From Macrostomum lignano (lineage: Eukaryota): a stretch of DNA of 41,840 nucleotides. The number at the start of each line of letters is the position of its first letter. Position 1 is the first letter of the stretch. Of this stretch, positions 1,190 through 41,233 are shown one piece after another. The translations under genes and the position numbers were made by a program. A model generated the notes under the pieces. It made no database searches. It worked only from the letters and a program-made list of their open reading frames with translations, and was not told where the DNA came from. The stretch covers positions 1-41,840 of the forward strand of contig NIVC01003271.1 in NCBI GenBank assembly GCA_002269645.1. The letters run 5' to 3'.

Positions 1190-1450
1190 TTGGGTTGGGC
1201 GCCCTCGACGGTCGAGGACAGCAGGGCGAGGTCGTCGGCGTAGCCAAGCACGCTGAGCCGCTTCTCCGGTTGACGTCGACCCACACGTCGCCGCAGCAGA
1301 AAGCCGTCGTCGTCGGTAGGAAGAGCAGTCCGCAGCACCCAGTCAAGCACCAGGACGAACAGGAACGGCGCCAGCGTATCTCCCTGAAGCACTCCGGAGG
1401 ATGTCTCAAAGGAGTCCGATAGGCCGTCCGTCCGGTCCGGTGCTGAGTAC
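1190..1450 (-). mobile_element. Internal fragment of a non-LTR (RTE-like) retrotransposon reverse transcriptase
   Basis: Minus strand reads DGLSDSFETSSGVLQGDTLAPFLFVLVLDWVLR...LSVLGYADDLALLSSTVEGAQ, which contains the QG motif and the YADD catalytic motif. It ends abruptly on both sides. Confidence 0.88.
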
Positions 1451-5186: not shown

Positions 5187-6384
5187 AAACTGCAGAAACG
5201 AGCGAACAGATTTCTTGCAGCGCAAAGTAGGAGAAGCACGAGATGTAAGGAGCAAAAGCTGCTTGGTTGCTTTAAGTATTGCTGCTGAAAATATAGAAAG
5301 AGGGGGTCAAGGCAGCTGGGTTCAAGCGCTATTGCGCTCGTTTCATTCTCTTCTCTTAACCACGAATTTATTAACCAGTTTGTCACGGTCAGCTAACCCC
5401 CAAAAATTAGCTTGGAAACGCTTGGTTCATTGTCTGCTGGACGCTTAGATTTTCTGCCTAAAGCAGCTATAGGTAGCTCGTATTAGTTTAGCAGAAACAA
5501 TGGCCTTTGAAAAGCTCCAGAAATGCATTTTTGCTTTACTCGCGCCCTGTAGAGTGCTGCTCCCTACAACTAGCCAATCCACCCTCAAGTGTGTGCAGCT
5601 TGCAATTGTCACTGCCACGAGCCGCGGTGGCAACCTCGCTGCAAATACTTGGCGAGCGTAATTTTGCTCACAAAGAAGCGTTTTGCCCTAGTTTGCATTT
5701 TTAAACTAATCTGCAGCATACATAGAATAGCAGTGTGTGCAATAGCGTGTGCACGTTTCTAGCATTCTGGCGCAGCAGTATTTCCACTTCCATCTAGTTA
5801 GCACACTGCACCCTACCACTCTCGTATACGTATCTATCGTATTCGTCTCGTATCTATGCTCGTATATGTAGTCACGACAGTAACCTTAAGTAAATTGGAC
5901 TCAGTCAAGACCTGAGCCGCATGCACAGGTTTTTGATCATATCTATAAAAATTTACCGTGATACTCACTACAATTAGTTTTAATTATTTTTTCTGTATTA
6001 AGTCATATTTAATTTACTGTCAACAGCGGATATTGGTTCACCCAAACCAATGCATTGTTTATCACTGCGGAATAATCATACATAGCTCAATTTGGGTGGA
6101 TGAATTACCGTATTCCCAAAGATGTGAAAAGTTTAGAGCTTCCTTATCAGACAACAAGGAAAAAGACAGCGAAATTCCCTGTCATATATGTGTAGATAAT
6201 CATAACCGTGTCACAGAGCGCGCCTCAAAGCTTTGGCGTGAAATAGGCCACATCTCGGGGCGCCAGCGTCAGCCAGCAGGGGGGAGTCGATGAAACCCAG
6301 TGTGCCTGAAACATCAGTAAGAGCACCTCCTGCACCGGCTATGGGCAGTACCATTCGGCGCGGATGATGTGGTCTGCCAGCTGG

Positions 6385-7335
6385 GTCGCCTGAAGAAACA
6401 CCTGGGTCACTCGTGCCCGGTGCACGAGAGAGTTGTCCTGGTGGAGGAAGATACCTTTCTCAAGCGTCTTCGGCCGCTGCTATGCGAGCGCCTGCAGAAC
6501 CTGAGACAAGCAGACGGTGCTGTATCATTCTGCCGTCACTGTGCCTTGCTGAAACGACAAAAAGACTGAAAAAAACTTGGTTGCCATCACTTTGCTGACG
6601 CTGCACTCGCGACAAAATTTAAGGAGAGCATCTTCTTTGTTGGTGACCCACCGCTGACTCTGCTCCTTGGTCTCTGGGTCGTAATAATAGAGTCAGGTTT
6701 CGTCGCCAACGAAAATGTTATCCACTAACTTTGAGCAGCCTCCGTCAAACCTGGCCGCCACGAGGTCGGCAAACTCAACGCGGGCTCGCATTGCGTGCAA
6801 CGCGAGCGGACAGCTTTCTCATGCCAAAGTGCTAGTGCAGGATCTTAATGATGATTTAATCCAACACTCCGACGAGCTGCTCCAATCAGCGAATCGTCAA
6901 TCGCCGATCTCAATAGCACATGGCGTCGAACAGCAGCAACGACTCCGTCGGAGACGGCCAAACTCGGCCGCCCCTCGCGAGTATCGACGTCCAGAGTGGC
7001 CGAGCCGCAAGGGAAACTACTCGTACTCGTACATCATCGACTGGGATGGTGCTTGATCCTGTAGAGCCTCACGCAGCGTCTGGAGGCTGGCGGCCGCAGA
7101 GCTGCCCAGCCGAAACTGGACCAGGATCGCCACTCGCCTATCGCGGACAGTGCTGTCAGCTGTGGCAGGGGGCATGTTTTCAGCCAAACTTTGGCTAGTG
7201 CGGCGCATCTTTGCGACCGATTTGGGTTGAAATCTTACAAGCGAACGTAGAAAAGCGAGATCTAAATGCTGATTAAGTTTTGTTTGATGTGCACAATTTT
7301 TAAGCTGCATTTTTCGGGAACTTAATAAGCACCCC
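6385..7335 (-). mobile_element. Degenerate mariner transposon (transposase pseudogene, 3' end missing)
   Basis: HTH-like RVAILVQFRLGSSAAASLQTLREALQDQAPS; EGRPS; HFGMRKLSAR; IFVGDET*LYYYDPETKEQSQRW; SKVMATKF; LHQDNSLVH. Several stops and frameshifts. Mariner-like terminus TA|GGGGTGCTTATTAAGTT at ~7335. No YSPDLAP segment or second TIR found. Confidence 0.85.
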
Positions 7336-7994
7336 TACATTTTTGAGTCCCAGCCAGGGTTTCAGTCTACAGGACTGCCCTCATATAACAAAAGGCAGCC
7401 CAGAACAAGATGCAGACAAACTGCTGCCATCGCGGAAGTTCCATCGCCTGTCCGTTAGCGCCTCAATGCTGGCGTCCAGAAAGAAGAGCACAACGGTTTC
7501 CTGCGTGTTGACCACCAGGCCGAAACTCGTCGCTACAATAACTGAAGACAAAGGTCGCAAACGAGTAGTCAATGATCGGGCCGGGCCGCAGAGCCAGCGT
7601 CATGCTAGCACGGCAGTTGACGGCCCGGCGATGCTCACCAAAGCGTACAAGCACATGGTCGAGCTGTGCCACCTACTCATTGCGTTTCGTCTGTCTTGAT
7701 CTTCTTGAGCCTGCATGATGGAAGCGGGTGATGGCCCACACCATTTCCTGTCTCTTCAGGAAGTCCTCCAGCGCTCTGGACAGTGCTGGTTTTCTTACGC
7801 GCCGCACAAAATTGGGCACAAAATTTATTTTATTGGGAGCCCCAAATAAGTCGTGAGTTGAAGCCAAGGAGGGTGAATGCGAGTCTGGGAAAAGAAATTT
7901 CAAAAGCTTCAATATGAAGAGCTGTAGTCCTATGGTTCATTTGCATTCGCAAATAACATGCGAAATTGTGTCACATGCAAGCAACGTTGGAACG

Positions 7995-8200
7995 AAAGAC
8001 TAAAGAACCAAGGACTGGGGGGTCGCCAAACACACCCTCAGTTACCCCAGGGATACTGGCACCCATTTTACAGCTGGCTGAAGCAATGCAGAGTTAAGTG
8101 TCTTGCTCAAGGACACAGATTGCTCTGAGTGAGTCTCGAATCGAACCCCCGACCTTTCAGTCGTGAGTCCGACGGACTAACCATTTGGCTGCAACTCCCT
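7995..8200 (-). mobile_element. tRNA-derived SINE with a CORE-like domain
   Basis: Minus strand has A-box-like AGCCAAATGGTT and B-box GGTTCGATTC, followed by GTGTCCTTGAGCAAGACACTTAACTCT...CTGTAAAATGGG, which resembles the CORE-SINE central domain. Confidence 0.7.
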
Positions 8201-9042
8201 AGGCTAAAAACATACAGTGTGTATTTGCTAAGTCTTTAAACTCGTAGCTCGCACATGTAGTTTATGTACCTCGGTAGCTAAATGCAGTTGCCGAGGTTTT
8301 AATGCATGCCTGATGACGATGCGAAAGTCATAACCGCAGTACACCTTGTGGGAGCGGGTGCCTGCGTACGTATCCGTCTGTCGCCTTGATTACGGCAGTG
8401 CCCTCCTGCTAAATTACTAACGAAAATCAACCAACAGTGTATCGTATCCTGCTAATTTTACCCGCGAGTTTAGCACCCGCACTTTGAAAGGTGCCACTCA
8501 AGTTTAAATTTCTGAATTATTCTTAGCTGCATATAATTTTGCATATTAAACTTACGATTGTGCAAAGGAATTATATAAATATATTTCTTTGTGTTATTGC
8601 TACACTTCTACAGATGCTGTGATATCACAGGGTGTTTTCTGCAGCGCAAATATTGCTCTTCTTCAGCTAATTAAGGTAGATGTGTATTATTTCGTGAAGA
8701 TACAGTAAACAAAAAGCAAAGCACGAGGCCGGAAAACGTGTTCATGATTATAGAAGGCTTTGGCCTATGAGCTGCGAAAGAGCTAGCCTCTATTCAAAAC
8801 AGTTTCCCTGTCGTGAACAGAACTGTAGCCTACTCATAGCTTGCGGTACACTCGTACGAGCGTAGGAGCTACTTGAGATAAAGCGAATGCATTAAACTTT
8901 TTATTTAACCTACATAAATACAGATTTCTGGGCTACTACTTATATAAATTCATTTAGCAAAATTGTGTTGTGCATAGACATTTTCTTAGCAAAAACTTGT
9001 TTATTGTACAGTTTAAAAACAGTTCACAGCTGGGATACACTG

Positions 9043-9245
9043 CTGCTGGGAATTACTGTAGCTGCATGGCTTACACACCCTTTAGAAGAGAATAATGTCC
9101 TGGGAATGTCCTGGCTGCTGGGAATTACTGTAGCTGCATGGCTTACACACCCTTTAGAAGAGAATAATGTCCTGGGAATGTCCTGGCTGCTGGGAATTAC
9201 TGTAGCTGCAGGGCTTACACACCTTTCAGAAGAGAATAATGTCCT
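9043..9245 (+). repeat. 72-bp tandem repeat, ~2.8 copies
   Basis: Unit CTGCTGGGAATTACTGTAGCTGCATGG...GTCCTGG starts at 9043, 9115 and 9187; the first two copies are identical. Confidence 0.95.
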
Positions 9246-9649
9246 TCAAGATGATCAAAGCAGCGCTTGAAAGTGCTAATTCCTTGAATGTTTTACATCG
9301 GATTGGTTTACGGTATCCAATCATTACTAGCGGATAACCGAAATTTGCTGTCTGAATCCAATTTCGCAGACATAGGAAATATAGCTCTATACAAGCAATC
9401 TAGTGCGGCCCCCCTTCGGGGCGCCCAATAAGCAAGAAGCAAAAATAGTTCATGGAAAACAATTAAAAAAGCAAATTTTCTTAAAGACCAATTCCTTCTT
9501 CACTTTTAAAAATCACATTCAGTGTAAATTTGACACGGACTATGATATTTGCTATGAATCTCTTTTTTCTAAAATTAACAGAAGACAACAAAATATAATT
9601 TTCACAAAGATAACAGACATTCCCGCTAAATACAAAATATTCCCAAGAC

Positions 9650-9952
9650 AGCAAGCATCCCCCTAGATAGCAAGCACCCCCCTCCAAAAGTAAGCAACCG
9701 CAGATAGCAAGCATCCCCTAATGCTCATAGCAAGCATCACCCCAGATAGCAAGCATCTGCAGATAGCAAGCATCCCCCAGATAGCAAGCATAGCACCCCA
9801 GATAGCAAGCATCATCCCCAGATGTTGAAGCATCCACCCAGATAGCAAGCACCCCAGATATTATAGAAGCATCCACCCAGATAGCAACCATTCTGCAGAT
9901 AGCAAGCATCCCCCAGATGTTGAAGCATCCACCCAGATAGCAAGCATCCTGC
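9650..9952 (+). repeat. Minisatellite with a CAGATAGCAAGCA(T/C)CCC core, ~18-20 bp units
   Basis: More than ten degenerate copies of CAGATAGCAAGCA in tandem. Confidence 0.9.
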
Positions 9953-10175
9953 AGATATACCTTTCTGCAGGAAAGGGACATACCTTTCAGAGGGGGGGCG
10001 AAAACAAAAAAACGAGACGAAAACGACTTTGTCTATGGCAATCGCGAGCCAATAGGAAGGAACGGGGGAAAGGGATGCTATGCTCGTAAAAGTGAAGATC
10101 GAGCGAGACAAAAATAACTGGCTTAGATTAGCACACTCTATTATTTCCTCTAATTTTATTGTTTCCTCTCCATGG

Positions 10176-10655
10176 GTTTGCAAATGTAACGGAACTTTTG
10201 TCTATGGTAGCAAGGCTGGCACAGCGGCACTTGCATGTAATTTGGTCCAACAAGCATCAATTTGGTCCATATAGCTTCATTTGCTACTGCTGTGGAGGCG
10301 CAAGATCAGCCCCACAGATGCACAGTATCGTGCGAAACGCGTCGTTAAATTAATTTAATGGTGATTTTCGCCTTTCTATTCATCTTTCACTTGCCAAGCG
10401 AGCAAATTTACCTGAAATTCCAGTTGGTTATCAGATTTGGACTAGAGCTAGCTAGAGCTCTGGAAAAACGACAGAAAATTGTTGGTAGACACGCTGATAT
10501 TCCAACGGTACGCAACAACCGAAGACGGTTACGAGGGGGCAAGAATTTTCCAAATGGTTCACGAGCGTTTGGATCAAATTGATGCTTTATGGACCAAATT
10601 AAATGCCGGTGTGCCAGCCTTGCTACCATTAGAGAAGTTCCGTTCATTGGCAAAC
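10176..10655. mobile_element. MITE-like element with ~90-bp imperfect terminal inverted repeats
   Basis: GTTTGCAAATGTAACGGAACTT...GGTAGCAAGGCTGGCACA...AATTTGGTCCA at 10176-10270 is the inverted match of 10570-10655. Confidence 0.75.
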
Positions 10656-11423
10656 GTATCTTGTTGGATTAAATTCAATGCGCGTAGGCCCTAATGGGCT
10701 GCAAAAAGCTATATAATAATTACTGATGGGGTTCGGCCTTTTCGGCCCCTTTCGGGAAGCCTTCGGGCCTCAGGTCTCAGAAATAAATCAATTAGAGCCC
10801 TGGCCCCCCACTCCTGTCATCCTGTCAGATGGTCAGCCCATGGTAGCTTGATCTTGTGGCAAGCAGTCTAGGTCCTATAGCTAAGAGAGGGACAGCGAGA
10901 GACAAGCAGGGAGAATTTTGAAGGTAGAGATCAGCTAATCCGCAGATTAACTAACCCGCTGCCACCAGCCCGTGCGTCCTGGCTCACCAAACCGGGACTT
11001 TCGAAATCGGGCTTCCGACTAGAGGGGGCTTAGCACGTACCTGCCAACTATAGTGTCTTTTCGCTGTCAATCTCGAAGTCATAGCCGATGACAAGGGACA
11101 CTGCTGGGACTTGATCGCATTGGCCATGCAGGTACAGAGGGGACTTGTGCAAGGGATTCTTGCAGTGGCGAGACTATGGGGTAGCTACATGTACTATTAC
11201 ATTGCTAAATACGAGGAATTTTACTTTTGGCCTTCAACGCGCCAACTAGCCTCTCGTAGCGCTGATGATAGGCTAACTCGAACATCAGAGACCGCATGAT
11301 TCATCACCCGAGCCGCTTGGCGAATCTAGAGTGCACAAAGTACATCTCTAGCGCCGATTTTGCACTATTGGCAATTTTGCTAACTGATTTGATAGTTTGA
11401 TCGACTGAGAACTGCCTTGCCAT

Positions 11424-11789
11424 CAGGCGCGTCGCCACCGGGGGGACAGGGGGGACATGTCCCCCCAGTAAAAGCTCTGGGGGGGACATGCCAATGCTTT
11501 GTCCCCTCCACCCCACCTTGTGGTAATCAGTAATTTTTCTACAGGGCGCCAAATTGTAGCGCCTTCGGCGCCCAAATGACTGTCTGCGGTGCTAAAATGA
11601 GTGCCTGTGGCGCTAAAATGAGTGCCTGTGGCGCTAAAATGAGTGTCTTCGGCGCTAAAATGAGTGCCTGCGGCGCTAAAATGAGTGCCTGTGGCACTAA
11701 AATGCATGAGTACCAAAATTTAGTCATGTACATGTACATGTCGAATTCTTGGCTTTGTCCCCACCATTAAATTCATGGCGACGCCCCTG
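11424..11789. mobile_element. hAT-type MITE with an 8-bp TSD and an internal 21-bp tandem array
   Basis: TIRs CAGGCGCGTCGCCA / TGGCGACGCCCCTG. Perfect 8-bp TSD CTTGCCAT at 11416-11423 and 11790-11797. About 6 copies of GCGCTAAAATGAGTGCCTGTG at ~11590-11705. Confidence 0.9.
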
Positions 11790-11934
11790 CTTGCCATTGG
11801 TCCACTGCGACCGGCGCCTACTAGCTTAGCTACTCATCTGAGCCATCGGCGAACAAAGGAATAAAACTGACAAAAATAACTGTCAGATTTAACCTTCTCA
11901 CTGATTCACTTAATTCACACCTCAGATTAGTAGA

Positions 11935-12110
11935 AGGCATGAGGGGGCTTTTGGGACAAATTCTTTCACCTCCTCCATAATCCCATTAAATCCATCTACA
12001 TTATCTCTGACAGAATCAGAAAAAATGGGGGTCGCACTTGCTCCGAAAACTTAGAACATATTCCTATTAAATCCATCCATATTATCCCTGACAGAATCAG
12101 AGCATAACAA
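11935..12110 (+). repeat. Degenerate ~80-bp repeat units, also present at 40700-41055
   Basis: TTAAATCCATC(C/T)A(T/C)ATTATC(C/T)CTGACAGAATCAG occurs twice here and about five times at 40.7-41.05 kb. Confidence 0.8.
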
Positions 12111-12305
12111 GTGTCCATTGACACCTGTTATGCTCACTGACACTGACAAAATCCACTGACATCCACCTATAGCATCTTCGAAACAATCAGAAAATAATCT
12201 GCATTCTTCTCCCCACATTCAATTCGCAACGTGCTACCAGATCCCAAAGACTTTAAATCATCAGCGCAGGGTCCTCACCCTTTGAAAAAAAAATTCTCAA
12301 TAAAA

Positions 12306-12541
12306 ATGTTTCCAGTTGTCTCTTCAGGTTCCTATTACAAAGTGCACGAGCCTAATTACAAGAGTAAGTACCGATGCAAACTTGAATGCAGCGAGTACAT
12401 GAGAAAATATTGGCCTGAGTTTGATATCAATGTCGTTAATATTAATCAAGCACTTAAATCTCACTGGTTTGAAAACACGGAGTAGTCATTAACGATTTTG
12501 ACAGCTATTATAACTTTGCTGAAGTTATAAGGCAGTTGTAG
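12306..12541 (+). pseudogene. Small (~79 aa) conserved element ORF with a 1-nt deletion; paralogue of 41234-41476
   Basis: MFPVVSSGSYYKVHEPNYKSKYRCKLECSEYMRKYWP...HWFE. Restoring one A at ~12473 gives KHGVVINDFDSYYNFAEVIRQL*, which aligns with the intact copy. Confidence 0.7.
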
Positions 12542-12602
12542 TAGCCAACTACAAGGTTGTGCCTGGCGGCTTATATCTTAATTTTACAAGTCTGAAGGCG
12601 AC

Positions 12603-13460
12603 TCACATTCTCTCAATAATAATTGTTAGCACAAACTCTTCCCCGTTAAAATCGACACCAACTCCATCCTCTGTTTCAAACTGCAGAACGATTTCATGTA
12701 TCTCTCTTTTACTCAGAATCACTCTTTTCACGGGGTTTGGCTTTTGCACAAGCATTTTGCCACCAGCAACAGAGTTTGAAATGTTAAAAAGTATGTTGGT
12801 TCGTTTGCCCTTGAATATCCAATCATGGCTCAGATTGCTGCGAATTAATATATTCAAACCTTTGACAATGTCAGCGATATTTGGCGCCAAGTACATACCG
12901 GATATTAGCCGGGACACAGCAACAGTGCCAGGCGCCTGCGGCGGGCTTTGGTCTGTGGTGCCACCATAAACTCTCTTTTCAAATCCCAACTCGCGATACC
13001 AAGTGCCATCTTTAAACTCTACCTCTGCGTCCTTATGAACTTGCAAGACAACTCTCATGACAGTTAGATCATAAGTTAATCTAACAGGGAACAGTTTATT
13101 TTCTGGTTTGCTTTCATCCGGTATCTCAAAATGCTTTCGTTTAGTGAAGACGTTCTCCAAGAAGTAATTATAAGTATCCACGCTCTGTGTGCTGACAGGA
13201 AATATCACAACCTCTGTTGTAGTACGCTTCCATTTGTAATAAAACTTGTTATTTTCCGCTGTCACATTGGGAACATTTGACCACCCAGTGAAATCATTGA
13301 GATAGACGTGGTAATTCGCCTCGGGATCCAAACGAAGTGGTTGCTCCAATTTTTGAATGAAGATTCCGTTTGAGTCAGTAATGCGACCCGCTACAGTGAT
13401 TGGAATGCTCTCCTTAGAGTGTGAAACAATGTTGTTTAGTCTTTCGGCTATGGCTTCCAT
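12603..13460 (-). CDS. Penton (minor capsid, single jelly-roll) protein of Polinton/adintovirus type, 285 aa, intact
   Basis: PLRLDPEANYHVYLNDFTGWSNVPNVTAENNKFYY at the N-terminus and ILIRSNLS...TNILFNI...GKMLVQKPN...IHEIVLQFETEDGVGVDFNGE at the C-terminus, the pattern of Polinton pentons. It lies directly downstream of the major capsid gene. Confidence 0.82.
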   Translation of the reverse strand: MEAIAERLNNIVSHSKESIPITVAGRITDSNGIFIQKLEQPLRLDPEANYHVYLNDFTGWSNVPNVTAENNKFYYKWKRTTTEVVIFPVSTQSVDTYNYFLENVFTKRKHFEIPDESKPENKLFPVRLTYDLTVMRVVLQVHKDAEVEFKDGTWYRELGFEKRVYGGTTDQSPPQAPGTVAVSRLISGMYLAPNIADIVKGLNILIRSNLSHDWIFKGKRTNILFNISNSVAGGKMLVQKPNPVKRVILSKREIHEIVLQFETEDGVGVDFNGEEFVLTIIIERM

Positions 13461-13482
13461 TTTTTTATTGAAAAAAAATTAT

Positions 13483-14777
13483 TCAAACTTTACTAGACGA
13501 GTTATTGATCATATTGACCTTGATTTTCCTCTCAAATGCATAGATAATAAACAGATCAACAGCCGTTGCGGCACCAAATTCTTTCCGCTCGATATTAGTC
13601 ACAATGTTAACAGGGCTATTGTCTGTAGGCATTTGTCTAGCAGTCACATCAACACCAAATATTGGCTATAGTTTTTTATACTGCAAGGTTGTCAAAACAA
13701 TACCGTTATTCTCTTTGACAGCCAGGTCCGACAGTTCATTGTAAAACTTACTAATCTTGTTCTCCGAGAAATTCCCATTTTGTGGCAATGCAGGGTATAA
13801 ATTGTCACTGATCTCATGTTGAATCGATCGAACGTTTCCATGTAGATATCTACCTACATTAGTCGTACTCCTCATAGTGACGATAATGTACCTTGATTGC
13901 TACAGGAGCCTTTTTTAATGCAAATATTGTGTCTTGCGTCATTCCGCTCATCTCTGCACATATAAGCTGTATAAGCAACATCAATGTCTTTCTCACTCGC
14001 CTTCAAGTATTCAGCTTTGAGTGCAGTCTTGGGCTCAATAATTTCTAAGTACAGCTCCACGCTAGTTAGCTTAATCTCCATCGATGTATGATTGACCCCC
14101 GACCAAATTCCTCTGTTCCGATCATCTCTAGTCAGTCTAAATGTGTAGCTGAAGTTGCTTGTCAACCGATTAAAGCTATTACAGAAACCACTCATAAACC
14201 TCAAAGGTACAAAAATATCTACAGACCTAAACAGCGGATTCTTAGCAGCATCGTTCTCACCAGCAAGAGCATAGTTGTATCTCTCCTTTCTCTTTTTGTA
14301 ACCAGGGTCATTCTCATCTCCTGTCTGTTCATTGGGGATGAATCCAGCACCGCTCCCCATCTGAATAAAATCCGGGTTCTCAATCAAGCAGTGGGTATCA
14401 TAGACCACACCAAAGTTTGCTATTCTTTCCAACTCTGTACTTCCATTGGACACATTAAACTCTTTGAACATATAAGCCCAGAAATTACTGGTTAGTGCGA
14501 CATCCGCATTGTATAGATCATCATTAGCATGAGCGGCGTCTGCGCCTCCTTTAGTTTTGAATTGAAACGTCATATAGAAGCCGCTCCTTAGACTGTGGAC
14601 ACTGACCAAAGACGAACATCCATTATATGTGAATGTCAGCGTTTGACCTGGACCCAAATTAGTTTCATTCTGATTTTCCTGACTGGGAACTCTTACCTGA
14701 GTCGCTTTGATTGTGCTATCATCACTCAAAATAGGCTTGTTAATTTTGTAGAAAACTGGTGTCAGTGGGTCGTTCAT
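13483..14777 (-). pseudogene. Major capsid protein (double jelly-roll, 'hexon'), disrupted
   Basis: The 301-aa ORF (KPILSDDSTIK...FVPLRFMSGFCNSFNRL) shifts frame at ~13900-13930 into QSRYIIVTM.... An in-frame TAG at 13666-13668 interrupts YKKL*PIFGVDV. The frame then continues to ...LFIIYAFERKIKV...* at 13483. Reconstructed length is ~420 aa. Confidence 0.8.
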
Positions 14778-14807
14778 TTTTTAACTAAAAATAAAATAAA
14801 ATAAGAA

Positions 14808-16074
14808 ATGAAGCGAAAAAGTACACAGCAGATATCTGAATTGGAGAAGCTAGCACAAGCACAGAAACGAGTTACCGGGCTAATAAATAAGGAGCAACAA
14901 TCCTACAATGAGTTTGTCCAAGCAGCCACAGAGTTTCATAAACCTGGGTATGGAGAAGCTAAGAAAAATACTGATTAGGTCAAAGAAACTATCGACGACA
15001 TACAGCAGGAAACCCTGGTGCAAAAGGTTTTGGGCAAAATTCCAGAAGCACCACAGATACAACCGCAACCACAACAACCACAACCACAGATACAGCCGCA
15101 ACCACAACAACCACAACCACGTCAATTACAACTAAAAGTGACAGATAACATTTTTGGACCAGTAGAGCGTGTAGAACATGATGGGAAATATGTATTTGGA
15201 ATAAGTATGTGGAGAAAAACATTTATAATGAACCAGTGAAATATTATATCAACATAAATAAGGAAAATATTTCTGTTGTCAAAGGCTCAGAAACTATGAA
15301 AATTCCTATCACAGACGCCTTACTGACTTTTATGACCAAGAACCAAGAGAGAATCTCGGACAAGCAGCTAAAGAACTACAGAGATCTAGTGACTTTTTCT
15401 CTTGCTAGAGATATAGAAATACTAATGGTCCCAGAAGTTCTGAAACATATGTACGATGGCGGTGTCAACCTGACTAAATTAAAAAAGTACAAGCACTAGC
15501 TTTAAACAATGGTTTGGTTTGCCAGATCAGGGGGAAGTCATGAAATCTAGAACAACAACAACAACAACAGCAACAACAACAACCACAACCACAACAACAA
15601 CAGCAACCACCACAACAGCAGCAACATTTTACAGAAGTACTCAGGCAACTGGAAAATGCAGATCCGACTCAAAATTAAGTAGCTAAATATAAAAATGATC
15701 ACCCAGATGCCTGGCAACGCTTAGAACAACACTCCCCAGATCGAATGAATAGAATCAATCAAAGAGTTTTCACACCTCAACAAAGACAGGCACCACATGA
15801 CAGTTCCATCTCTGAAAGTGAGCGGTCTTTTTCATCACCTCCCCAGCAGCTTCAAACCCAACCAACTCCACAACCCCAAAACCAACCGCCCAAATCTGGA
15901 AAAGGAATAACTGAAATCTACAAGCGAGTAGTGGTTCTTCTAGGAGCGGCAAAGACCGGAATGAAAGACGAGAATAGAAAAGAATTTGTCAACATCCTGG
16001 ACAAAATGCTTGAGAGAAAATACATCGATAAGAGGGCGAGAGAGCTTCTGCTTTCGCGGTTCAACAAAAAATAA
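14808..16074 (+). pseudogene. Conserved uncharacterised Polinton capsid-cluster gene, broken into pieces
   Basis: ATG at 14808, in-frame TAG at 14976, frameshift at ~15198 (VFG|NKYVEK), further lesions at 15500-15680. Motifs TDNIFG...YVFG, ALLTFMTK...QLKNYRDL and the C-terminal GKG...KRVVVLLGAAKTG...EFVNILDKM resemble a common Polinton gene. Q/P-rich inserts are present. Confidence 0.6.
15556..15625 (+). repeat. (CAA/CAG/CCA)n low-complexity tract; a similar tract lies at 15050-15125
   Basis: Runs of CAACAACAG and CCACAACAA that encode poly-Q/P. Confidence 0.85.
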
Positions 16075-16090
16075 TTTATTTCAAGTAAAA

Positions 16091-16477
16091 ATGCCTCTTA
16101 TTTTCGAAAAAGACATTGACAAATACTATGACAAAGAGGAACTTAATCTCATTAAACGCGGATCTTGCCTTTTCCCTGCAGGCCACTATCCAAGAAAAGA
16201 ACGCTCTGGGAATGGCCTTGCCGATTTGATCGCTCAGGGGGCCAAGATTTTTAAGGTCATTGGAGAGAACAAAGAGAACATCAAGAACGTTGCCGAAGCG
16301 GCTGGCAGTGTAGCCACAGCAGCCAAAAAGATAAAGGATACTGTAACACCTAAACAGGAGATTCAGCCGCTGGCCCCGCTGGCTCCGCTGGCCCCAAATC
16401 CAGACAGTGTGGACCCTGCAGTCTATGAGAAGATGAGAGCTAGCATTAAAAAAGGAAGTGGTTTTAAATTTGACTAA
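16091..16477 (+). CDS. 128-aa virion protein with an amphipathic helix (pVI/cupiennin-like membrane-active candidate)
   Basis: True start is AAAAATG at 16091 (MPLIFEKD). Contains SGNGLADLIAQGAKIFKVIG and ends in KKGSGFKFD. G-x-G motifs are typical of Polinton core proteins. Function is inferred. Confidence 0.55.
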   Translation: MPLIFEKDIDKYYDKEELNLIKRGSCLFPAGHYPRKERSGNGLADLIAQGAKIFKVIGENKENIKNVAEAAGSVATAAKKIKDTVTPKQEIQPLAPLAPLAPNPDSVDPAVYEKMRASIKKGSGFKFD

Positions 16478-16502
16478 AGGGTACTTTCCGAGGGTACAAG
16501 AC

Positions 16503-16649
16503 AAGTCCCGAAATGACACATTTAAGTCAGGAAATGACAGATTTAAGTCCAGAAATGACATATTTAAGTCCCGAAATGACACATCTAAGTCCCGAAATGA
16601 CACATCCAAGTCCCAAAATGACACATCCAAGTCCCAAAATGACACATCT
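16503..16649 (+). repeat. 21-bp tandem array, 7 copies
   Basis: Unit AAGTCCC(G/A)AAATGACACAT(T/C)(T/C), followed at 16690-16800 by three TTTGCGT(T/C)C(A/T)A(T/A)TTCGGC motifs. Confidence 0.95.
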
Positions 16650-16920
16650 TCTAAATGACTTATTATAACTTTTTGCAATCAATTTCGTCGTTTTTGCGTT
16701 CAATTTCGGCGCGAGGGCTAGTGTGCAGTCCAAACAACTGAGCCATAGACACTGGGCAACTTTTGCGTTCAAATTCGGCCTTTTTGCGTCCTATTTCGGC
16801 AGCTTACGGCATCAGACATTCTCCATTTGAAATTACAGAAACTAGCCTCGCCGCGACAAAATAACCATGGATACGAATGAACAATAAAGGACAATACACA
16901 TTTTTTTCATCATAGAAAAA

Positions 16921-17719
16921 ATGGACTTTTCAAACGACTTCAATCCTCACTGGACGCGTAATCAGATTAAGTTTTCTCATCACGAGTCAATCCCGAGTCA
17001 CTTCAGATGCATTGTTGTTGGTTCATCAGGTTCAGGTAAAACATTTAGTCTTTAACATGCTTCTTAGACCTGGCTTTATCGACTATGACACTCTGCACAT
17101 CTACTCTCCCACACTGTATCAAGATGAGTATAAAATGTTGATTGCAGGGCTTCAAAACAAACTGAACAAAGAGGACATTATTCAATGTTTTAATAACCAA
17201 CAAAACCTTCCCAGTAACCCAGAAATTGTAGCTGCTGAATATGCAAAGCACCTTAAAGACAACGAAAAATGGCAGAACATTAAAGTGTTCACCTATGGAG
17301 ATCCGCAGGTGGATCCAAAGACCAAACTTCTACCCCAACCAGATGAGCTAGAAAAGGGGAGAAAGCATTTGATCGTCTTTGATGATTGTATGACTGGCCC
17401 ACAGAAGCAGATAGAAAACTATTTTACAAGAGGACGACATAACAATTGTAATGTAATTTATATTGCACAGAACTGGTTCGAGCTCCCGAACAAAACAATT
17501 CGTGGGAACTGCAATCTGATTCTTCTGTTTCCAACCATTCCACAGGATAGGCTAAAAAGATTTTACAATGAGGTCATTGCGCCAGCCTATTTCATAAATC
17601 CAACAAAAAACTCAAACAGAAAAATTTCACAAGAAGAATTTGTTAACCTCTGCTGCGAAAAGTGGAACCAACCATATCAGTTTGTCATGATCAACAAGGA
17701 AAAAAGAACTGTAATTTAA
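16921..17719 (+). pseudogene. A32/FtsK-like DNA packaging ATPase, frameshifted just after Walker A
   Basis: MDFSNDF...FRCIVVGSSGSGKT (Walker A) from ATG 16921 shifts frame at ~17044 into LVFNMLL. Walker B LIVFDD and RGRHNN follow, then YIAQ and GNCNLILLF. Confidence 0.9.
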
Positions 17720-17735
17720 AATTTGCTATTAAAAG

Positions 17736-18554
17736 ATGTCTATTAATTTTGCAGGTGAATCCATTTCTGGCAACAGCACTCTTACATCAGCTCAGATATC
17801 CATCCTAGACAGGCAATATATCAACAGCGACGAAAAGATCCTAGAGATCAAACTGAATAAAAACAGACTGAAACAATTAGAGCGATCAAGGCATCTGCTA
17901 CAGATAAACATAGAAGATCTCCGCATAAAAGTGGCCAGGCAGAAGTTTGAAAGTGATAAGCTTTATGCGCAGTTTGCACACGCAACTAATGAACTTAGGT
18001 CAGAAATAACTTCGGCAGTCTCGCAAATCAATAGGTTAACATCGACAGGTAATCTTCTGAGAAATTCCACTGATAGGCGGATGCGTATTCTTGAAGAAGG
18101 AGTTTTCACAAACACAGTTAAAGTGAGTAATTTAGAAGAGTTTATGACTCAATCAACAGCGTTGCATGATAGAATTAGAGAAAACGTCGCAACCAACACA
18201 GGTAAAGTGAGGAATTTAGAAGAGTTCATGACTCAGTCAACAGCGTTGCATGATAGAATTAGAGAAAACGTCGCAACCAACACAGGCAAAGTGAGGAATT
18301 TAGAAGAGTTCATGATTCAGTCAACAGCGTTGCATGATCAAATCAAAGTAAGAATTACTGCAAATACAGTCTTTTTAGATTTAGTTTTTACCGAATGGCA
18401 GAAATCGGTGAGAAGAATCAGTCGTCTTGAGGGAGTACACAATCTTCCTGATATTGATACTGTTGAAGCAGAATCTACTGCTCGTCCGGTCATTTCTACA
18501 GATGAAATGACAAAAATCAAGAGCAAAGAGAAAACAGATCTTCAAACCGGATAG
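17736..18554 (+). CDS. 272-aa coiled-coil, fibre-like protein with 28-aa repeats, intact
   Basis: N-terminus MSINFAG. Three 84-nt repeats NT(V/G)KV(S/R)NLEEFM(T/I)QSTALHD(R/Q)I at ~18111-18345. The fibre role is inferred from position and sequence. Confidence 0.55.
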   Translation: MSINFAGESISGNSTLTSAQISILDRQYINSDEKILEIKLNKNRLKQLERSRHLLQINIEDLRIKVARQKFESDKLYAQFAHATNELRSEITSAVSQINRLTSTGNLLRNSTDRRMRILEEGVFTNTVKVSNLEEFMTQSTALHDRIRENVATNTGKVRNLEEFMTQSTALHDRIRENVATNTGKVRNLEEFMIQSTALHDQIKVRITANTVFLDLVFTEWQKSVRRISRLEGVHNLPDIDTVEAESTARPVISTDEMTKIKSKEKTDLQTG

Positions 18555-18587
18555 TTTTATAATTTTTTTATTTTTCTAGGGAAAAAA

Positions 18588-19198
18588 ATGGCCCAACAAA
18601 ATTCTCTATACGATCAGTCTCAATACGCTGAACCTAAAATACCGACAGCACCAAACTCAATGGCACCGAATTCGAACACACAAAACCTGGCACCAAGCCT
18701 GGATGCACCGAATCTGAATGCACCTACTGTAAATATTCAGACCGACTTTACCCCGTCATTACTTGTAACTCTCAACAATTTCGATTGATGGAGATTCAAA
18801 AAATGCGAGATGACATTGAAAAAAACATTTTCCACAACACAAAGAAAATTAAGCGCTATAACAGCCACTGTAAATTTTTCGACTACAGCAATATGATTCT
18901 AGGATCTGTGTCTGTTCTATCTGGATCTGCTGCAGCTGTCTCAACGTTGCCAGTCATCACAGCCCCAATCGCAATCCCGCTCGGCTCTGTGGGTGCTGCA
19001 TGTGGACTTATTTCAGCAATTCAGTCAACAGCGTTGCATGATCGAATCAAAGAAAGAATTGATGCAATTAAAGTCTTTTTAGATTTAATTTTTACCGAAT
19101 GGCAGAAATCGTTGAGAAGAATCAGTCGTCTTGAACGCTTGCATAATCTCAAAAACATTGACGCTGAATTGAGGCACAACAGACCACAAGGGAAATAA
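18588..19198 (+). pseudogene. Two-TM Polinton gene, copy 1, fused in frame to a fibre-type C-terminus
   Basis: MAQQNSLYD... shifts frame before LYPVITCNSQQFRLMEIQKMRDDIEK. The hydrophobic hairpin ILGSVSVLSGSAAAVSTLPVITAPIAIPLGSVGAACGLISAI then runs into QSTALHDRIKERID...FTEWQKSLRRISRLE. Confidence 0.7.
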
Positions 19199-19438
19199 GT
19201 GATCCAACCGACTTGACCACTGACCACAAATTTCGTGAGCCAACCGGTTTGATCACTAACCCAAAATTTCGTGAGCCAACCGGTTTGTTCGAGATCAAGT
19301 GTAGAATGGAGCTCATAGACAATGAAGAGGCAGATTCGAAGAGACCCGCGTTGCCGTCACTGCAGACGAAGCAATCAAAAGTAAAAAAAAATCTAACCAC
19401 CACAAACTAGTTGTCGATTTTTTTTAAATTCCCTAAAA

Positions 19439-19949
19439 ATGGATGCTCAAAATTCTCTTTATGATCCGAATGCACCCACAGCACCTAGTGCGCCTCATGA
19501 GCAACAAAAACTCTACCCCGTCATTTCTTGTAACTCTCAACAATTTCGATTGGTGGAGAATGGAGATTCAAAAAATGCGAGATGACATTGAAAAAAATAT
19601 TTTCCACAACACAAAGAAAATTAAGCGCTATGACAGCCACTGTAAATTTTTCGACTACAGCAATATGATTCTAGGATCTGTGTCTGTTCTATCTGGATCT
19701 GCTGCAGCTGTCTCAACGTTGCCAGTCATCACAGCCCCAATCGCAATCCCGCTCGGCTCTGTGGGTGCTGCATGTGGACTTATTTCAGCAATTACTGGAG
19801 CATTAGCGCGAAACAGGCGAAAAAAACTAAAGCAGCTACAGGAGAAGCAAGTAAAAGATAAAGGGGTGCTAACATCAATCATAGGGTATGTTTCAAGGGC
19901 AATCGAGGATAAGTTCATTTCAGAGGATGAGTTCAAAAAAATCATATAG
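19439..19949 (+). pseudogene. Two-TM Polinton gene, copy 2 (probably the 'GasderminX'-type adintovirus gene), with a 7-nt frameshifting duplication and a truncated 3' end
   Basis: MDAQNSLYD...KLYPVISCNSQQFRL, then an extra GTGGAGA, then MEIQK..., the TM hairpin, RKKLKQL and VSRAIEDKFISEDEFKKII*. The stop abuts the mariner derivative. Confidence 0.65.
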
Positions 19950-21348
19950 CTTAAAAAGTTAGTCGCTTATTTTAGCTTTCATGCCACGAAAGTCAGATTT
20001 TTATAAGTGCTTCCTGCTGTGAGCAGCATGCATTTGTTTGCATACCCTTAGCCATAGAAATACACACCAGATAATGCTTCTATGCTCACTCAGAAGAAAG
20101 CCACAACCCACAAGTAGAGCTGATCAAGTGGCTAATTAGCTCTACCAGTAGAGCTAGTAGAACTGGTAGAGCTCTGATTAGCTCTGCCAGCTTCAAACTA
20201 TTGGATCCACCTAACCCAGTTTGTAGGTGGATCCAATAGTCCACTATAGTACCGTCGTCTATTGGATCCAATAGACGACGGTCGTTTCGTCTGCCGCCAG
20301 TTCGTCTGCCACCCAGCTTTCGTCTGCAAGAGTACGATACAGTCGTTTCGTCTGCCAACGAATAGTAAAGTTTTATTAATAAGTGTAATATATGTCAGTT
20401 GTTGTCATTTATTTGAGATTTGAGATATTTGAGATAACAGTGATTAAGATATCGGGATCATTTCTTAGTAGTAATGACTTAAACGAGTAATTTCTGAATA
20501 TTTTTGTTTATATTTAAAAACTACGCAATTTAACGAATTCAATGCATTTTTTTCGTCATGATATGGCATGACGCCATACTATCTCTTAACCGTCTCAAAG
20601 CTTCAAAGCTCAAAAGCAATTAGTCGAGTTAGAATTATTTTACTTATTATAAGTAAAGTTACACGCGCACAAATTATAAATCCCATTCACAGCTTACTAC
20701 GTAGTCAATTAAAGCTATATACGAATAATTGTAATTCTTGGAAACATTGCGATAAGCAAAATAAAAAATACAAATACTACATCTTATTCTAAATCTGAAA
20801 ATTACTAGTAAATTCTAACTATTAAAAATAAACTATAAATTAATTTCAGCCATTTATAAAACTTATTTTGCTACTTATTGCTACTTATTGCCGGCAGACG
20901 AAAAGGCGGCAGACGAAATGACCGCGCCCCACAAACTGTTCGTTGACTGATGGCATTGGGACCATGAATACTGGTCAGGTTTTCGTGAATTTCAGGGCAT
21001 TTCTGACCAAGATTCCAAAGTGTGAAAATTGCATGTCTCTGCCCTTCTGTAGAGTGAATGTTAGGGTCCATGACAGGAACAAATATTGCAAGCTGCTGTC
21101 TTGCAACTCTGCGCTTGATCAGCTCTACTTGTGGCTTTCTTCTGAGTGAGCATAGAAGCATTATGTGGTGTGTATTTCTATGGCCAAGGCAAGGGTATGC
21201 AAACAACAGCAGGAAGCACTTATAAAAATCGGACTTTTGTGGCATGAAAGCCAAAATAAGCCACTAACTTTTAAGGCATATACTTTTTTCAACACACATT
21301 AATACTTGTGAAAGCAAGCAAAAGTGACACTACTTTCAGGACACCCCT

Positions 21349-21352
<4 letters not shown>
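19950..21352 (-). mobile_element. Internally deleted mariner derivative with long inverted repeats
   Basis: 19945-20128 is an inverted copy of 21114-21290. The terminus CACAAGGGGTGTCCTGAAAGT is followed by (TA)n. A transposase HTH start MDPNIHSTEGQRHAIFTLWNLGQKCPEIHENLTSIHGPNAISQRTV (21071-20931) is cut by an insertion. Confidence 0.75.
20279..20930. mobile_element. Nested non-autonomous DNA element with TTCGTCTGCC-repeat inverted ends
   Basis: CGGTCGTTTCGTCTGCCGCC on the left matches the reverse complement of GGCGGCAGACGAAATGACCG on the right. AT-rich interior. Superfamily not assignable. Confidence 0.65.

Positions 21353-21388
<36 letters not shown>
21353..21388. repeat. (TA)n microsatellite at the mariner end
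   Basis: About 18 TA units. Confidence 0.95.
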
Positions 21389-21389
<1 letters not shown>

Positions 21390-22164
21390 TATTCTACTAG
21401 GGTTTTTTTGAAAGGTGCAAGACAAGACAGGGTGTGTAATTTTAAAGTGCAATTTTAAGGCTCAAAGTGCAATTTCTCTTTATTTATTCTTATGTTAAAG
21501 CAGTGCAAATGAGGCTTAAAAGGAAAAATAAGTAATGAGACTGCGCCTAAACTGCACTTACTTTTTTAACTTCAGGGTGCAATTTCAAAATTTAAGATGC
21601 TAGATGCATATGCACATTGCACACAAAAAAGCTGCTATTGTATATCTTTAGATATCTAGGGATCAGGACGAGAAAGGTAAAGAAAAAAAAATTGCTAGAG
21701 AATCATTCTTTGGTTTTGTCATGGTATACTTTCCATTTAACTGTAATTGTTGTGACTGAGGCCTTTTGGCTATTGCCCTTTTGACTATCACCTTTTCGAT
21801 CTATTGCCCTTTTAACCAGTTCTTTTACCATTCAGGCCTATTCTTATCCTACTTGGCAAGGTCTAGATAGTCCAATGTATATATATATATATCATATAAG
21901 TTGAGGTTGGACAAGCAGAAAATTTTGGTCAGGCATGAAATTTTGTAAAATTTTCAAAGTTGGACATGATTGTAATTGTGATGTAGGTTATATAGTAACT
22001 TAAATTTAAGTTATAATTTAAATAAAAAAGTAAGCAAAAATTCACAACCTCATGAATAGGTTTCAAGAAAATCACAATTGTGAAGAAATGGTCATGAATT
22101 CACAAAATTGTGAGTGATCATGAACCTGATCCCTAGACCCTACGTATGAATCATACATGCACAA

Positions 22165-22297
22165 CCTTGAGAATCACTTGGCCATTTCTACTAGCAACAC
22201 ACATATAAGTCACTATTGGCTAAAAGCAGTCACATGACTACTATTCTGTCCAATAGTGACTTACATGTGTAGTGTTACCAATAGAAACAGCCAAGTG
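22165..22297. repeat. Fold-back (palindromic MITE-like) element
   Basis: CACTTGGC...ATAAGTCACTATTGG matches CCAATAGTGACTTAC...GCCAAGTG in inverted orientation. Confidence 0.65.
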
Positions 22298-24182
22298 AAT
22301 CCCTAGGTGGCACCCAAGCATGATATAAGCATGCTCAATTGCTAGCTAACTTGGCTAATCTAGTTGGTATAGTCCTCATATTGTGGTAGACCAAGGGTAA
22401 AGATAATTGAACTGCTTTTTGATAATTTTTTCTTGTTTTGACAAATTTGAACTTAAAGTATACATTGCAATTTGCATTTTGAGAGTCAAATTTAAATTGT
22501 CACTAACTAAGCTAGTGTGAACAACTAGTGTGAGTGTGACTAATTACTAGTATAATTTTAGAGATTGCCCATGTATTATTTAGTATCCAAACTTTAACAA
22601 ATCCAGTTGTCACCAATAGAGTCACCAACTAGTATGATTTTAAAGATTAAATTTTAAAAAATTATCAATTTTTATCTAAGGAACAAAGTTATCAATAGCT
22701 TTTGACCAATCACAACATTATATGGGCTATAGGCTTGTGGCATGTTTGAGTAGCTTCATACATGCCCAACCTCAAAATTTCACCCATCTGGTGCAACTTA
22801 GTTTTGTCCAGATTTGTGACTTAGTTCCTGCTGATTGCGACTTAATTTTCACTTTGTATATAACTTTTCTTGCCTTTTTCTCTTTTTTCTCTCTCTCTTT
22901 CCCTTTTCTCTCCTCTCCTTTATTTCTTTTCCCTTCTTTTCCTCTTTCTTTCTTCTTCTAATTTTTCATTTTTTTGCGTTTTCAATTTTGCAACTTACAT
23001 TGGTTGGCAGCCATTTCACCTATCTGGTTCGGATGGGTTGGATGGGTGTTGGGCATGTACAAGTTGCTTGATCTTGCTAATAAAATATTTTTAAATGCTT
23101 AAATATGTCTGACTATCATAGAAGTGCATCTTCAAGTTAGCAACAAATATTTGAAGGTCTAAAGCAATTATTGACTATCAAATGCTAACAAATTGATTGA
23201 CAACCAACCATTGATAATAAATACTACTAATAAAATGCAATAATCAACATAAAATTCAAATTCAAATATTTATTATAATGCATTTTGCATGCCTATTTGT
23301 TGTGTTATATTTTTTTTATATCAAAGAATAGAGTAAGAACAAAGTTTGAACAACATAGGTTGAAGTACAAATAATCAAGGGCAGGTTGAATTAAGCAGAT
23401 AAGCAATGTCATACCAGTGCTAACTCTCAAAATCAGTTTAAATAATACAAAGAACATTGCCAGTGCCACTATGTTGAAGTTGCATATTAAAAGTGGGAGA
23501 CTGAGCTTTAATGTGCAAAGCTTTCAGATGTGCAGATACTCTATTCTGCCTACTCAACTCAACCTGTCCCTGGTTTTTTGCACTTGACATATGGTCTATT
23601 ATCAACCAATCTAATATACATTTTATTTATACTCTTAATTTAATACAAAACATATATATTTGTTTTTTTCTTTTTTCTTTGCTCTTAATAATCTACTTGA
23701 CAATGCATCTAGGTACATGAAATTTGTTTTATAAAATAATTGAATTTTCAAAAAATGTCTGTCTTCAAATGTTAATTAATTGCATTTCTATGAGTACTTG
23801 TTTATCCTACTCTCAAAGTGAGCAACTTTATCTGAATACTACTATTATACTACTAAAAAATCATTTTTGCTTATTAGTTGACTTGCATACATTAACTTGG
23901 TATCTTTTATTTAAACTTTCTGGAACAGTCTAGGGAGAAAATTTATTTTACAGATGCCTATTCAGTTCTACTCATAGTTAAGACCTTTGCCTTTGCTTAC
24001 CTCTTTGTTTCCACTTTAGCCCCTAATTTGTTGATAGTCAAATTCTCACTGTCAGCTGTACATTGTTTCTCAGAAATGTAAGGCATGAAAATATACAAGT
24101 TCTCAAGAGCTTGTGATGCTTATCTGAGTGAGTCAGTTGTGCCAATCAAATTCAGTTGAATCTTTTGTAAGCTTTATTCATA

Positions 24183-24415
24183 GGGCCCTAGCTACATGGT
24201 CTAGCGCTCTCATGTGTCAGCTGCTCAGGCTCAATTCCAAGTACTGTCACATTAATTTGGGGCTAAATTGAAATCTCAGTTTGGGTGTTCTGATGAATTA
24301 ACGCCAGTGAGGGCCAATACCAAAGGCACTATGAAGTTTTTATGCCTAACAGTAAATAGAAGTTAGGGCCTCTAAATAGAAGTGTGCCAGGGTTCATACA
24401 GCCCCTTAATTCTAA
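24183..24415 (+). mobile_element. Degenerate SINE of the same family as 26474-26817
   Basis: Shares GTCACATTAATTTGGGGCT(A/G)AATTG...ATGCCTAAC(A/G)GTAAA...AGTTAGGGCC with the copy at 26.5 kb. Confidence 0.7.
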
Positions 24416-24850
24416 AACAATAGCCTAATAGGTTAATTTAGAGAAATCTCATAGAATTTCCATGTCACATTTCAATTTTTTATACTGCTAAGTCTTTTGA
24501 ATCAGTTTGTACAGTAAAGTCTGGCACAGGAATAGGAATTCACCCAGAGTACGTTTCTACTCTTGTGTACTTAGCCCGCTACGATACTCTTCCTTGGAAT
24601 TCCATAGCTAGTTCAGTAGTTAGTCTATTTATTCAGCTCCTTTCAATTCGAAATCGAAAATTCATTGCTTTGCTGGAGTTTAGCGCTATTTGGCCCTACA
24701 ATCTACATAATTTTTTGGCTAGCTGGATAGCAATAATTTTATCGCTGTTCTAATCTCAAACTACAGGACAGAATCTCAGCATAACACTGACCTCTTGGTA
24801 TTTCAGTCTTGAAGGCCTTTTCCTGGCCGTCCGTTGTGGCAGGTGAAACT

Positions 24851-40245: not shown

Positions 40246-40699
40246 GGGCCTGTCAACTTAAGCTCATAAAGCGGAGCCCGTGTAGCCTAATATAAGCGGA
40301 GCCCAAAAAGCGGAGCCCGAAAATAGGATCAAACAATTAGGTTAGTAAACGAATCACGGGGATGCGATAAATATTCGAACTGGATTAGCAAACGGGATCG
40401 AACCTGAAACGTAGCGTACAGTGCGATGAAATGAGCAAAGGGGATAAACGCTAAAAATGGGAAAACTAACCGAACAGAGTATGCAAAACCTTTTCGCAAC
40501 AAACGCCAAAAAACAAAAAAACAGAAAAAACACAAAAACAGAAAACAAACACAAAAAACAGAACAAAAACTCCCAAAAATAGACAGCCGACATGAAAAAA
40601 CACAATGCGTTAGAACCAAACTGGATTTAATGCGCAGGGAAGCAAAACTCTCAAAAGCCAGTAGAATGCATGAGGGGGCTTCTGGGACAAAATTTTTCA

Positions 40700-41055: not shown

Positions 41056-41233
41056 ATAACAAGTGTCCTACATAATCCACTGACATCCACCCATAGCATC
41101 TTCGAAACAATCAGAAAATAATCTGCATTCTTCTCCCCACATTCAATCCGCAACGCGAAACCAGATCCCTAAGACTTTAAATCATCAGCGCAGGGTGCTC
41201 ATCCTCCGAAAAAAATCTAAATTTTCTCTAAAA

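Follow-up and report, generated by a model that had tools for sequence, protein, structure and literature searches.

The stretch of Macrostomum lignano DNA analysed here (41,840 nt, referred to below as the window) carries at positions 11929–19949 an endogenous virus-like element, of which 8.0 kb is retained and whose genes resemble the virion-morphogenesis genes of Polintons. The genes of the penton and of the major capsid protein (MCP) lie on the minus strand, while the remaining morphogenesis genes, including a packaging ATPase, follow on the plus strand beyond a short A/T spacer (Table 1). This is the layout given by an earlier sequence-only reading of the same DNA, with penton and MCP genes facing a plus-strand gene run across a 30-bp AT-rich spacer. 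That reading overlooked the duplication of a two-transmembrane (two-TM) gene, the small gene at 12306, the copy of the terminus at 40660 and the mariner-like junction on the right. The viral genes are intronless and tightly packed, and open reading frames (ORFs) of at least 100 codons cover 78% of 11929–19949 versus 21% of 19950–24900. We interpret the element as a truncated and decaying Polinton-type provirus that has probably lost its replication arm.

Table 1. Features of the viral element and of its second terminus copy in the window
Position	Strand	Feature	Basis or remark
11929–12200	+	Left terminus	Begins AGTAGA, then ~81-bp subterminal repeats
12306–12520	+	Small gene beside terminus	Compared with the 80-aa copy at 41234, which is open, its frame breaks near 12470
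12603–13460	-	Penton (minor capsid protein), 285 aa, open frame	Homologues, Foldseek, VIA-align
13483–14777	-	Double jelly-roll MCP (predicted fold), broken	tblastn in two frames against P0001; PF21738; P0001 model
14778–14807		A/T spacer; MCP and ORF-A start on either side of it and diverge	Exactly 30 bp, almost all A/T
14808–16074	+	ORF-A, Q/P-rich	Three-frame view
16091–16477	+	128-aa open ORF, two G-x-G motifs	Open reading frame
16503–16649		Seven copies of a 21-bp repeat	Within the 440-bp gap ahead of the ATPase
16921–17719	+	A32/FtsK-type packaging ATPase, broken	Homologues; two-frame tblastn; Pox_A32 in relatives
17736–18554	+	272-aa open ORF, 2.7 copies of a 28-aa repeat	Putatively fibre-like/coiled-coil
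18588–19198	+	Two-TM gene, first copy	Frame disrupted near 18785; a copy of the fibre-like gene tail stands in for the 3' end
19439–19949	+	Two-TM gene, second copy	Frame broken near 19555; last codons overlap the mariner-like junction
19928–21352		Mariner-like remnant, not viral	HTH_48 E 2e-5; inverted arms
40660–41476	+	Second terminus copy, direct orientation	About four 80-bp repeats, open 80-aa gene

Identification of the capsid and packaging genes

Among 1,003 candidates for the MCP, 13 were homologous, nine at 67–89% and four at 46–50% identity, and the Pfam family PF21738 was found in all 11 members of the MCP alignment. The window gene aligns by tblastn to P0001, an intact relative of 428 aa with 78% identity to the window MCP, in two frames separated by a frameshift near 13895, and it also carries an in-frame stop near 13667. 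The fold was read from a model of P0001, standing in for the broken window gene. This model, folded with 72 sequences, has a pLDDT of 91, and in Foldseek it found the Sputnik MCP (E 5e-19, TM-score 0.66), then PBCV-1 Vp54 and the mavirus MCP. Judged by this model, the MCP is a double jelly-roll capsid protein. When the MCP, the penton and the MCP profile were searched against the sequences of solved structures, nothing significant was found, and P0001 had no match by tblastn to phage records. The best 50 rows from BFVD held no close adintovirus hexon, a result to which we gave no weight.

The penton has 12 homologues at 52–63% identity among 546 candidates. Its AlphaFold model is of low confidence (pLDDT 57), and the best Foldseek matches of that model are the mavirus penton (E 3e-4, probability 0.97) and Sputnik chain N (E 8e-4), with adenovirus capsid entries next. 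With VIA-align, the best seven rows are all viral capsid entries at Z 5.8–8.3, a range graded middling; the alignment to the mavirus penton has a Z of 7.2 and a root-mean-square deviation of 9.5 over 202 residues. The penton also matched unnamed viral clusters in the Atlas with a score of 0.98, recognition being just below threshold.

For the ATPase, 29 of 106 candidates were homologous, the best eight at 62–77%, and four of the six relatives scanned, including P0199 and P0210, reached the Pox_A32 cut-off. Alignment by tblastn in two frames places a frameshift near 17050, just past Walker A, and PHROGs gave a weak terminase-ATPase match. The sequence-only reading had made its viral call depend on jelly-roll folds in the two capsid genes. 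The call survives, with a double jelly-roll in the P0001 model and viral pentons as the matches of the penton model, and the names penton and A32 ATPase are upheld by the mavirus penton and viral capsid matches and by the Pox_A32 matches of close relatives.

Decay of the element

Six of the nine genes are broken, namely those of the MCP and the ATPase, ORF-A, both two-TM copies and the small gene at 12306, which leaves open frames in the penton, the 128-aa ORF and the 272-aa ORF. We also counted private changes at columns that are invariant in all other close relatives, ignoring kinship among these relatives. The window MCP has 17 such changes in 176 columns, versus 4–14 in five relatives, and the penton has 11 in 110, versus 1–6 in nine relatives, the highest rate of its set. 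With 8–11 breaks in 6.5 kb of coding sequence, a gene of 858 bp would stay open by chance with a probability of 0.24–0.35, so the open penton needs no special explanation. As read from its sequence, this copy is predicted to make no virions and to be unable to move. Among vertebrate Mavericks, 96% of 3,511 loci are degraded (PMC8097293). Intact vertebrate Mavericks span 12.7–24.6 kb with a mean of 16.9 kb (PMC8097293), and Polintons generally 13–25 kb (10.1101/2023.08.22.554363); the retained length is well under the intact Maverick range.

A single terminus and a probable deletion junction

The left end of the element has a second copy far to its right. The segments 11929–12538 and 40660–41476 are 81–88% identical and start at the same base with AGTAGA, and their flanks are unrelated. 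Vertebrate Mavericks most often begin with (AGT)2 (PMC8097293), and AGTAGA shares five of six bases with this end motif, with one end only to compare. Because the start base is shared with a copy in unrelated flanks and the motif is Maverick-like, 11929 is probably a true terminus, and the left end probably corresponds to the outer portion of a terminal inverted repeat (TIR). The check for TIRs and a target-site duplication proposed by the sequence-only reading thus recovered the left terminus but not its partner: the 41.8-kb window contains no inverted copy of 11929–12600 and no target-site or flank duplication of either left flank.

The copy at 40660 diverges directly after the small gene, and the sequence further inward is not penton. 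It may represent a further left end that was truncated, or else the opposite arm belonging to an insertion that continues past the window edge. The two copies were also considered as direct terminal repeats of one 29-kb element. We rejected this arrangement: 19950–40659 contains spliced host genes and ordinary transposons, and the coverage of 21400–24900 by frames of at least 100 codons, only 9%, counts against a single element of that size. A 4-mer model built to recognize virus-like sequence in the flanking DNA proved powerless, with leave-one-out scores of about zero, and was not used as evidence.

On the right, the element runs into the mariner-like remnant, whose arms are recognizable as an inverted match of 19928–20128 to 21296–21114 at 81%. 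The left arm is without the outer ~56–60 bp found at the right end, and a short stretch of similarity marks its overlap with the viral sequence. Because the adjoining arm is without its own outer end, we infer that 19949 is a deletion junction, and the simplest reading is that one event removed the right-hand portion of the virus together with the transposon tip. A miniature inverted-repeat transposable element is nested inside the mariner-like remnant at 20279–20924.

Replication, integration and protease genes

None of the 272 stop-free segments of at least 55 aa in the window matched pPolB, rve integrase, adenain, a helicase or a tyrosine recombinase in Pfam, in a scan of limited sensitivity that missed the penton and recovered fragments of the MCP and ATPase at E values of only 0.001 and 0.007. 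The absence of pPolB, integrase and adenain noted in the sequence-only reading is borne out for the window at this sensitivity. Within 11929–19949 the sole unassigned gap is about 440 bp long and consists largely of the 21-bp repeat array. Genome contigs were also scanned with profiles of the MCP and ATPase alignments; none of 43 and none of 48 pattern matches, respectively, was confirmed, and these scans yielded no complete relative.

A clade of unnamed proteins

A search with the MCP profile retrieved 625 representatives at E ≤0.001, 25 of them at ≤1e-30. A quick tree was made from 99 rows, comprising 98 homologues of 380–520 aa, with shorter and longer ones dropped, and the unbroken N-terminal part of the window MCP. 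The window MCP is nested in three sets (6, 11 and 30 rows; support 99–100), in a tree that consists of unnamed proteins, without named references from group 1 or group 2 Mavericks or from Polinton-like viruses (PLVs). Among the 36 MCPs scanned with PF21738, four members of the 11-row set scored 29–51 bits, versus up to 337 elsewhere. Neither the names nor the accessions of the 30 proteins looked up, or of the cluster members listed for them, are informative. Close relatives of the MCP, penton and ATPase are mostly on contigs shorter than 4 kb, a circumstance that speaks neither for nor against a truncated provirus, and genes of the sister clade are on contigs of 10,407 bp (MCP P0030 and ATPase P0210, probably one contig), 16,143 bp (P0211) and 335,123 bp (P0232). 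The last of these, an ATPase on a 335-kb contig, is possibly another endogenous copy in a host genome.

By these comparisons the lineage appears to be undescribed, forming a separate clade known from unnamed proteins on short contigs. The sequence-only reading had raised this possibility, and the 30-row clade and the lack of named proteins among those looked up support it. We class it as a relic that functions like a Polinton morphogenesis module and most likely derives from the Polintoviricetes; we claim no family membership.

Accessory genes and surroundings

The small gene at 12306 and its 80-aa copy at 41234 have no Pfam, PHROG or Atlas match. ORF-A is probably a single gene, in which the frame changes about three times and two in-frame stops occur; its C-terminus presumably resembles a conserved Polinton accessory protein. 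The 128-aa ORF is putatively cupiennin/pVI-like; the labels 'capsid-cluster', 'pVI-like' and 'fibre-like' likewise denote presumed resemblances. ORF-A and the 128-aa and 272-aa ORFs have no meaningful Pfam or PHROG family match, the 272-aa ORF giving a weak match to SlyX (E 0.003) in Pfam. The region 16480–16920 combines the 21-bp array with short TTTTGCG-type repeats and could be an inserted element or a viral non-coding region.

The two copies of the two-TM gene are identical at 273 of 277 aligned bases, and the 3' end of the first copy is identical to the fibre-like gene tail (18315–18473) at 135 of 159 bases. The whole of 18315–19793 forms a tandem duplication of the fibre-like tail and the two-TM gene, in which the core is 99% and the fibre tail 85% identical and the 5' parts of the two-TM gene align poorly. 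This pattern is suggestive of gene conversion, or of recombination involving related copies of the virus. The two-TM gene encodes a long hydrophobic stretch and has weak matches to the two-TM Pfam family CyanoTRADDas_TM (E 0.005) and to phrog_11791 in PHROGs; it may be SLATT-like.

At most viral gene starts, in 12306–19439 and at 41234, a T-rich stretch precedes AAAA-ATG. A T-run with AAAA precedes nine of 280 ATGs in the cassette, seven of which are gene starts, and seven of 1,052 ATGs outside it (1–11928 and 19950–40659), for a pattern defined post hoc, after the starts had been seen. It is reminiscent of the signals that mark late promoters and starts in large DNA viruses.

The host genes are those of an animal: a bHLH (E 2e-11) and Orange gene with short introns, similar to Hairy, Hey and clockwork-orange, lies at about 4335–4877 on the minus strand, and intron-split genes for a protein kinase (24970–29582) and an MFS transporter (33832–35866) lie in exon pieces on the plus strand. 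Neighbouring host exons have long open frames of up to 414 codons. The window further contains a reverse-transcriptase fragment (1180–1512, minus strand), a mariner HTH fragment (7020–7334, minus strand), a small element with a 21-bp array a short way to the left of the virus (11426–11790) and a frameshifted Tc1-like DDE transposon with ~185-bp inverted repeats (38404–40245). Rfam gave no match.

Origin of the locus

The reading that we favour, at a probability of roughly three in four, is that of a truncated, decaying Polinton-type provirus whose replication arm has been lost. A complete Polinton-type DNA virus would have integrated into the animal germ line, and a deletion would then have removed its right part, joining the two-TM gene to the inside of the neighbouring mariner-like element. 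After the deletion and the neutral decay that followed, some 8 kb of virion genes would have remained along with the left terminus. In the intact virus, the MCP and penton would have built the shell and the ATPase would have pumped the genome in, these being the established roles of the three proteins in this virus group (PMC11071308). The polymerase, the integrase and probably the protease would have been in the lost right arm. The labels of an Alpha adintovirus map run ITR-PolB-Integrase-Fiber-...-FtsK-...-Penton-Hexon-ITR (PMC8502044 Fig. S2); for adintoviruses, we took the gene order solely from figure labels extracted as text. From right to left, the window has the cut, the two-TM gene, the fibre-like gene, the ATPase, accessory genes, the MCP, the penton and the terminus, so that the polymerase and integrase would fall beyond the cut.

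Several points weigh against this reading. In Beta adintoviruses and vertebrate Mavericks, the integrase is beside the penton and the protease in the structural block (PMC8502044, PMC8097293), and the arm retained here has neither in these places. The ATPase, with one private change in 109 columns versus 0–8 in eight relatives, shows no excess of changes. The presumed truncation of the two-TM gene is drawn from the junction and from general features of the family rather than from an aligned homologue. Lastly, pPolB, integrase and protease were not seen in this lineage, the contig scans having yielded no complete relative.

The sequence-only reading had described endogenous Polinton/adintovirus-like morphogenesis genes without a replication module, a description supported by the identification of the MCP, penton and ATPase and by the outcome of the segment scan, and it had left open whether they belong to a truncated provirus or to a satellite that supplies capsids. 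The breaks, the single end and the junction speak for the provirus. In a non-autonomous or satellite lineage, polymerase and integrase would never have been carried, or would have been lost before the element spread; with its termini and capsid genes kept, it would depend on a helper Polinton or a large DNA virus for copying and insertion in trans. Such an origin agrees with a window devoid of replication, integration and protease genes and with the second terminus copy, which implies that the family inserted more than once. PolB-less polintons that are still mobile have been reported in insects (10.1101/2025.02.07.637071), so even a non-autonomous derivative is not unprecedented, and integrase-less PLVs can occur integrated (PMC11296320). 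Mobilisation in trans, however, requires both ends, of which one is present, and a supply of capsids requires an intact MCP and ATPase, both of which are broken in this copy. Moreover, the right end is a probable junction rather than a terminus, and the second copy, diverging before the penton, does not have the same internal structure. These findings contradict the role of a capsid-supplying satellite for this copy, and we regard a satellite origin of the lineage as unlikely. Its extension to the whole close clade (the window with P0001–P0005; sister P0010–P0013 and P0034) is improbable. Here the lineage would consist of termini, a small terminal gene and a morphogenesis block, without polymerase, integrase or protease, and would be replicated and integrated in trans, with this copy as a damaged insertion. 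Should the lineage as a whole turn out to have no genes for replication and integration, it would represent a satellite of Polintons with capsid genes alone, the reverse of the transpovirons, which have no capsid. It would then inform the question whether the Polintons of animals form virions and complement each other.

The lost arm of a truncated provirus could also have been of another kind, like that of group 2 Mavericks and PLVs: it would have held an SF1/SF3 helicase, a primase-polymerase or a tyrosine recombinase, and a protease may have been absent. Swaps of replication modules are common in these viruses (10.64898/2026.06.19.733378; 10.64898/2026.10.13.758929), the structural block has no protease, and the MCP forms its own 30-row clade far from the PF21738 core, as its bit scores show. 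Against this, the AGTAG end fits the protein-primed termini of Mavericks (PMC8097293), proteins of the PF21738 core turn up as distant relatives in the MCP profile search, and among 4,862 coral elements only 52 are highlighted as deviating from PolB plus integrase (PMC11131425). We regard a different module as unlikely. It is very doubtful that the breaks or the right junction are sequencing or assembly errors that hide an intact or longer genomic copy. Repeats and the near-identical tandem duplication (273/277 bases) lie near the right end, and endogenous polintoviruses are often misassembled (PMC11131425), but the breaks include in-frame stops and not frame changes alone, host exons nearby keep their long open frames, and substitutions are raised at conserved capsid positions. 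Co-option of part of the cassette by the host, for instance of the penton as an antiviral or structural gene, would fit the open frames of the penton and two accessory ORFs. It is nonetheless highly improbable, given the chance of openness calculated above and a penton with the highest rate of conserved-column changes in its set.

Comparison with known systems

The truncated provirus is most readily compared with the Mavericks/Polintons, or adintoviruses (Polintoviricetes; PMC8502044, PMC8097293, 10.64898/2026.06.19.733378). With them it shares a PF21738 double jelly-roll MCP, a single jelly-roll penton, an A32/FtsK ATPase, intronless and packed genes and residence in an animal genome; its one terminus has five of the six bases of an AGT-type end. 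Genes labelled SLATT appear on some adintovirus maps (PMC8502044), and a two-TM gene is found in the window. It differs from them in that the retained part is without pPolB, RVE integrase and adenain, has one terminus, and places the penton directly at this terminus, and in that the window MCP is only about 15–22% identical to most of the distant library matches and its group has low PF21738 scores.

The best structural matches for the window MCP and penton are among PLVs/MELD viruses and virophages (mavirus, Sputnik), at only 8–13% sequence identity. Many PLVs are also without pPolB and RVE integrase (PMC11071308); PLVs carry some other replication gene, whereas none was seen in the window. 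The PolB-less mobile polintons of insects likewise have capsid genes without polB, and their TIRs can contain genes, of which the small gene in the window may be an example (10.1101/2025.02.07.637071). Unlike the window element, with its single end and broken capsid genes, they have TIRs on both sides and several similar insertions (10.1101/2025.02.07.637071). In the literature searched, which lay largely outside subscription journals, we found no paper on a capsid-only animal Polinton lineage.

The closest parallels in state of preservation are the degraded vertebrate Mavericks (PMC8097293) and the one-ended remnants at eri-6/7 in C. elegans (10.1101/2024.01.15.575659), with which the element shares stops, frameshifts, a missing TIR, transposon debris and clustered remnants. 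The C. elegans remnants keep the pPolB end (10.1101/2024.01.15.575659), whereas the element in M. lignano keeps the structural arm. The element is in this respect a fossil of a common type. Its value is that of a host anchor, which ties a clade of MCP, penton and ATPase sequences to an animal genome and attaches the terminus and gene order of this clade to the same animal locus.

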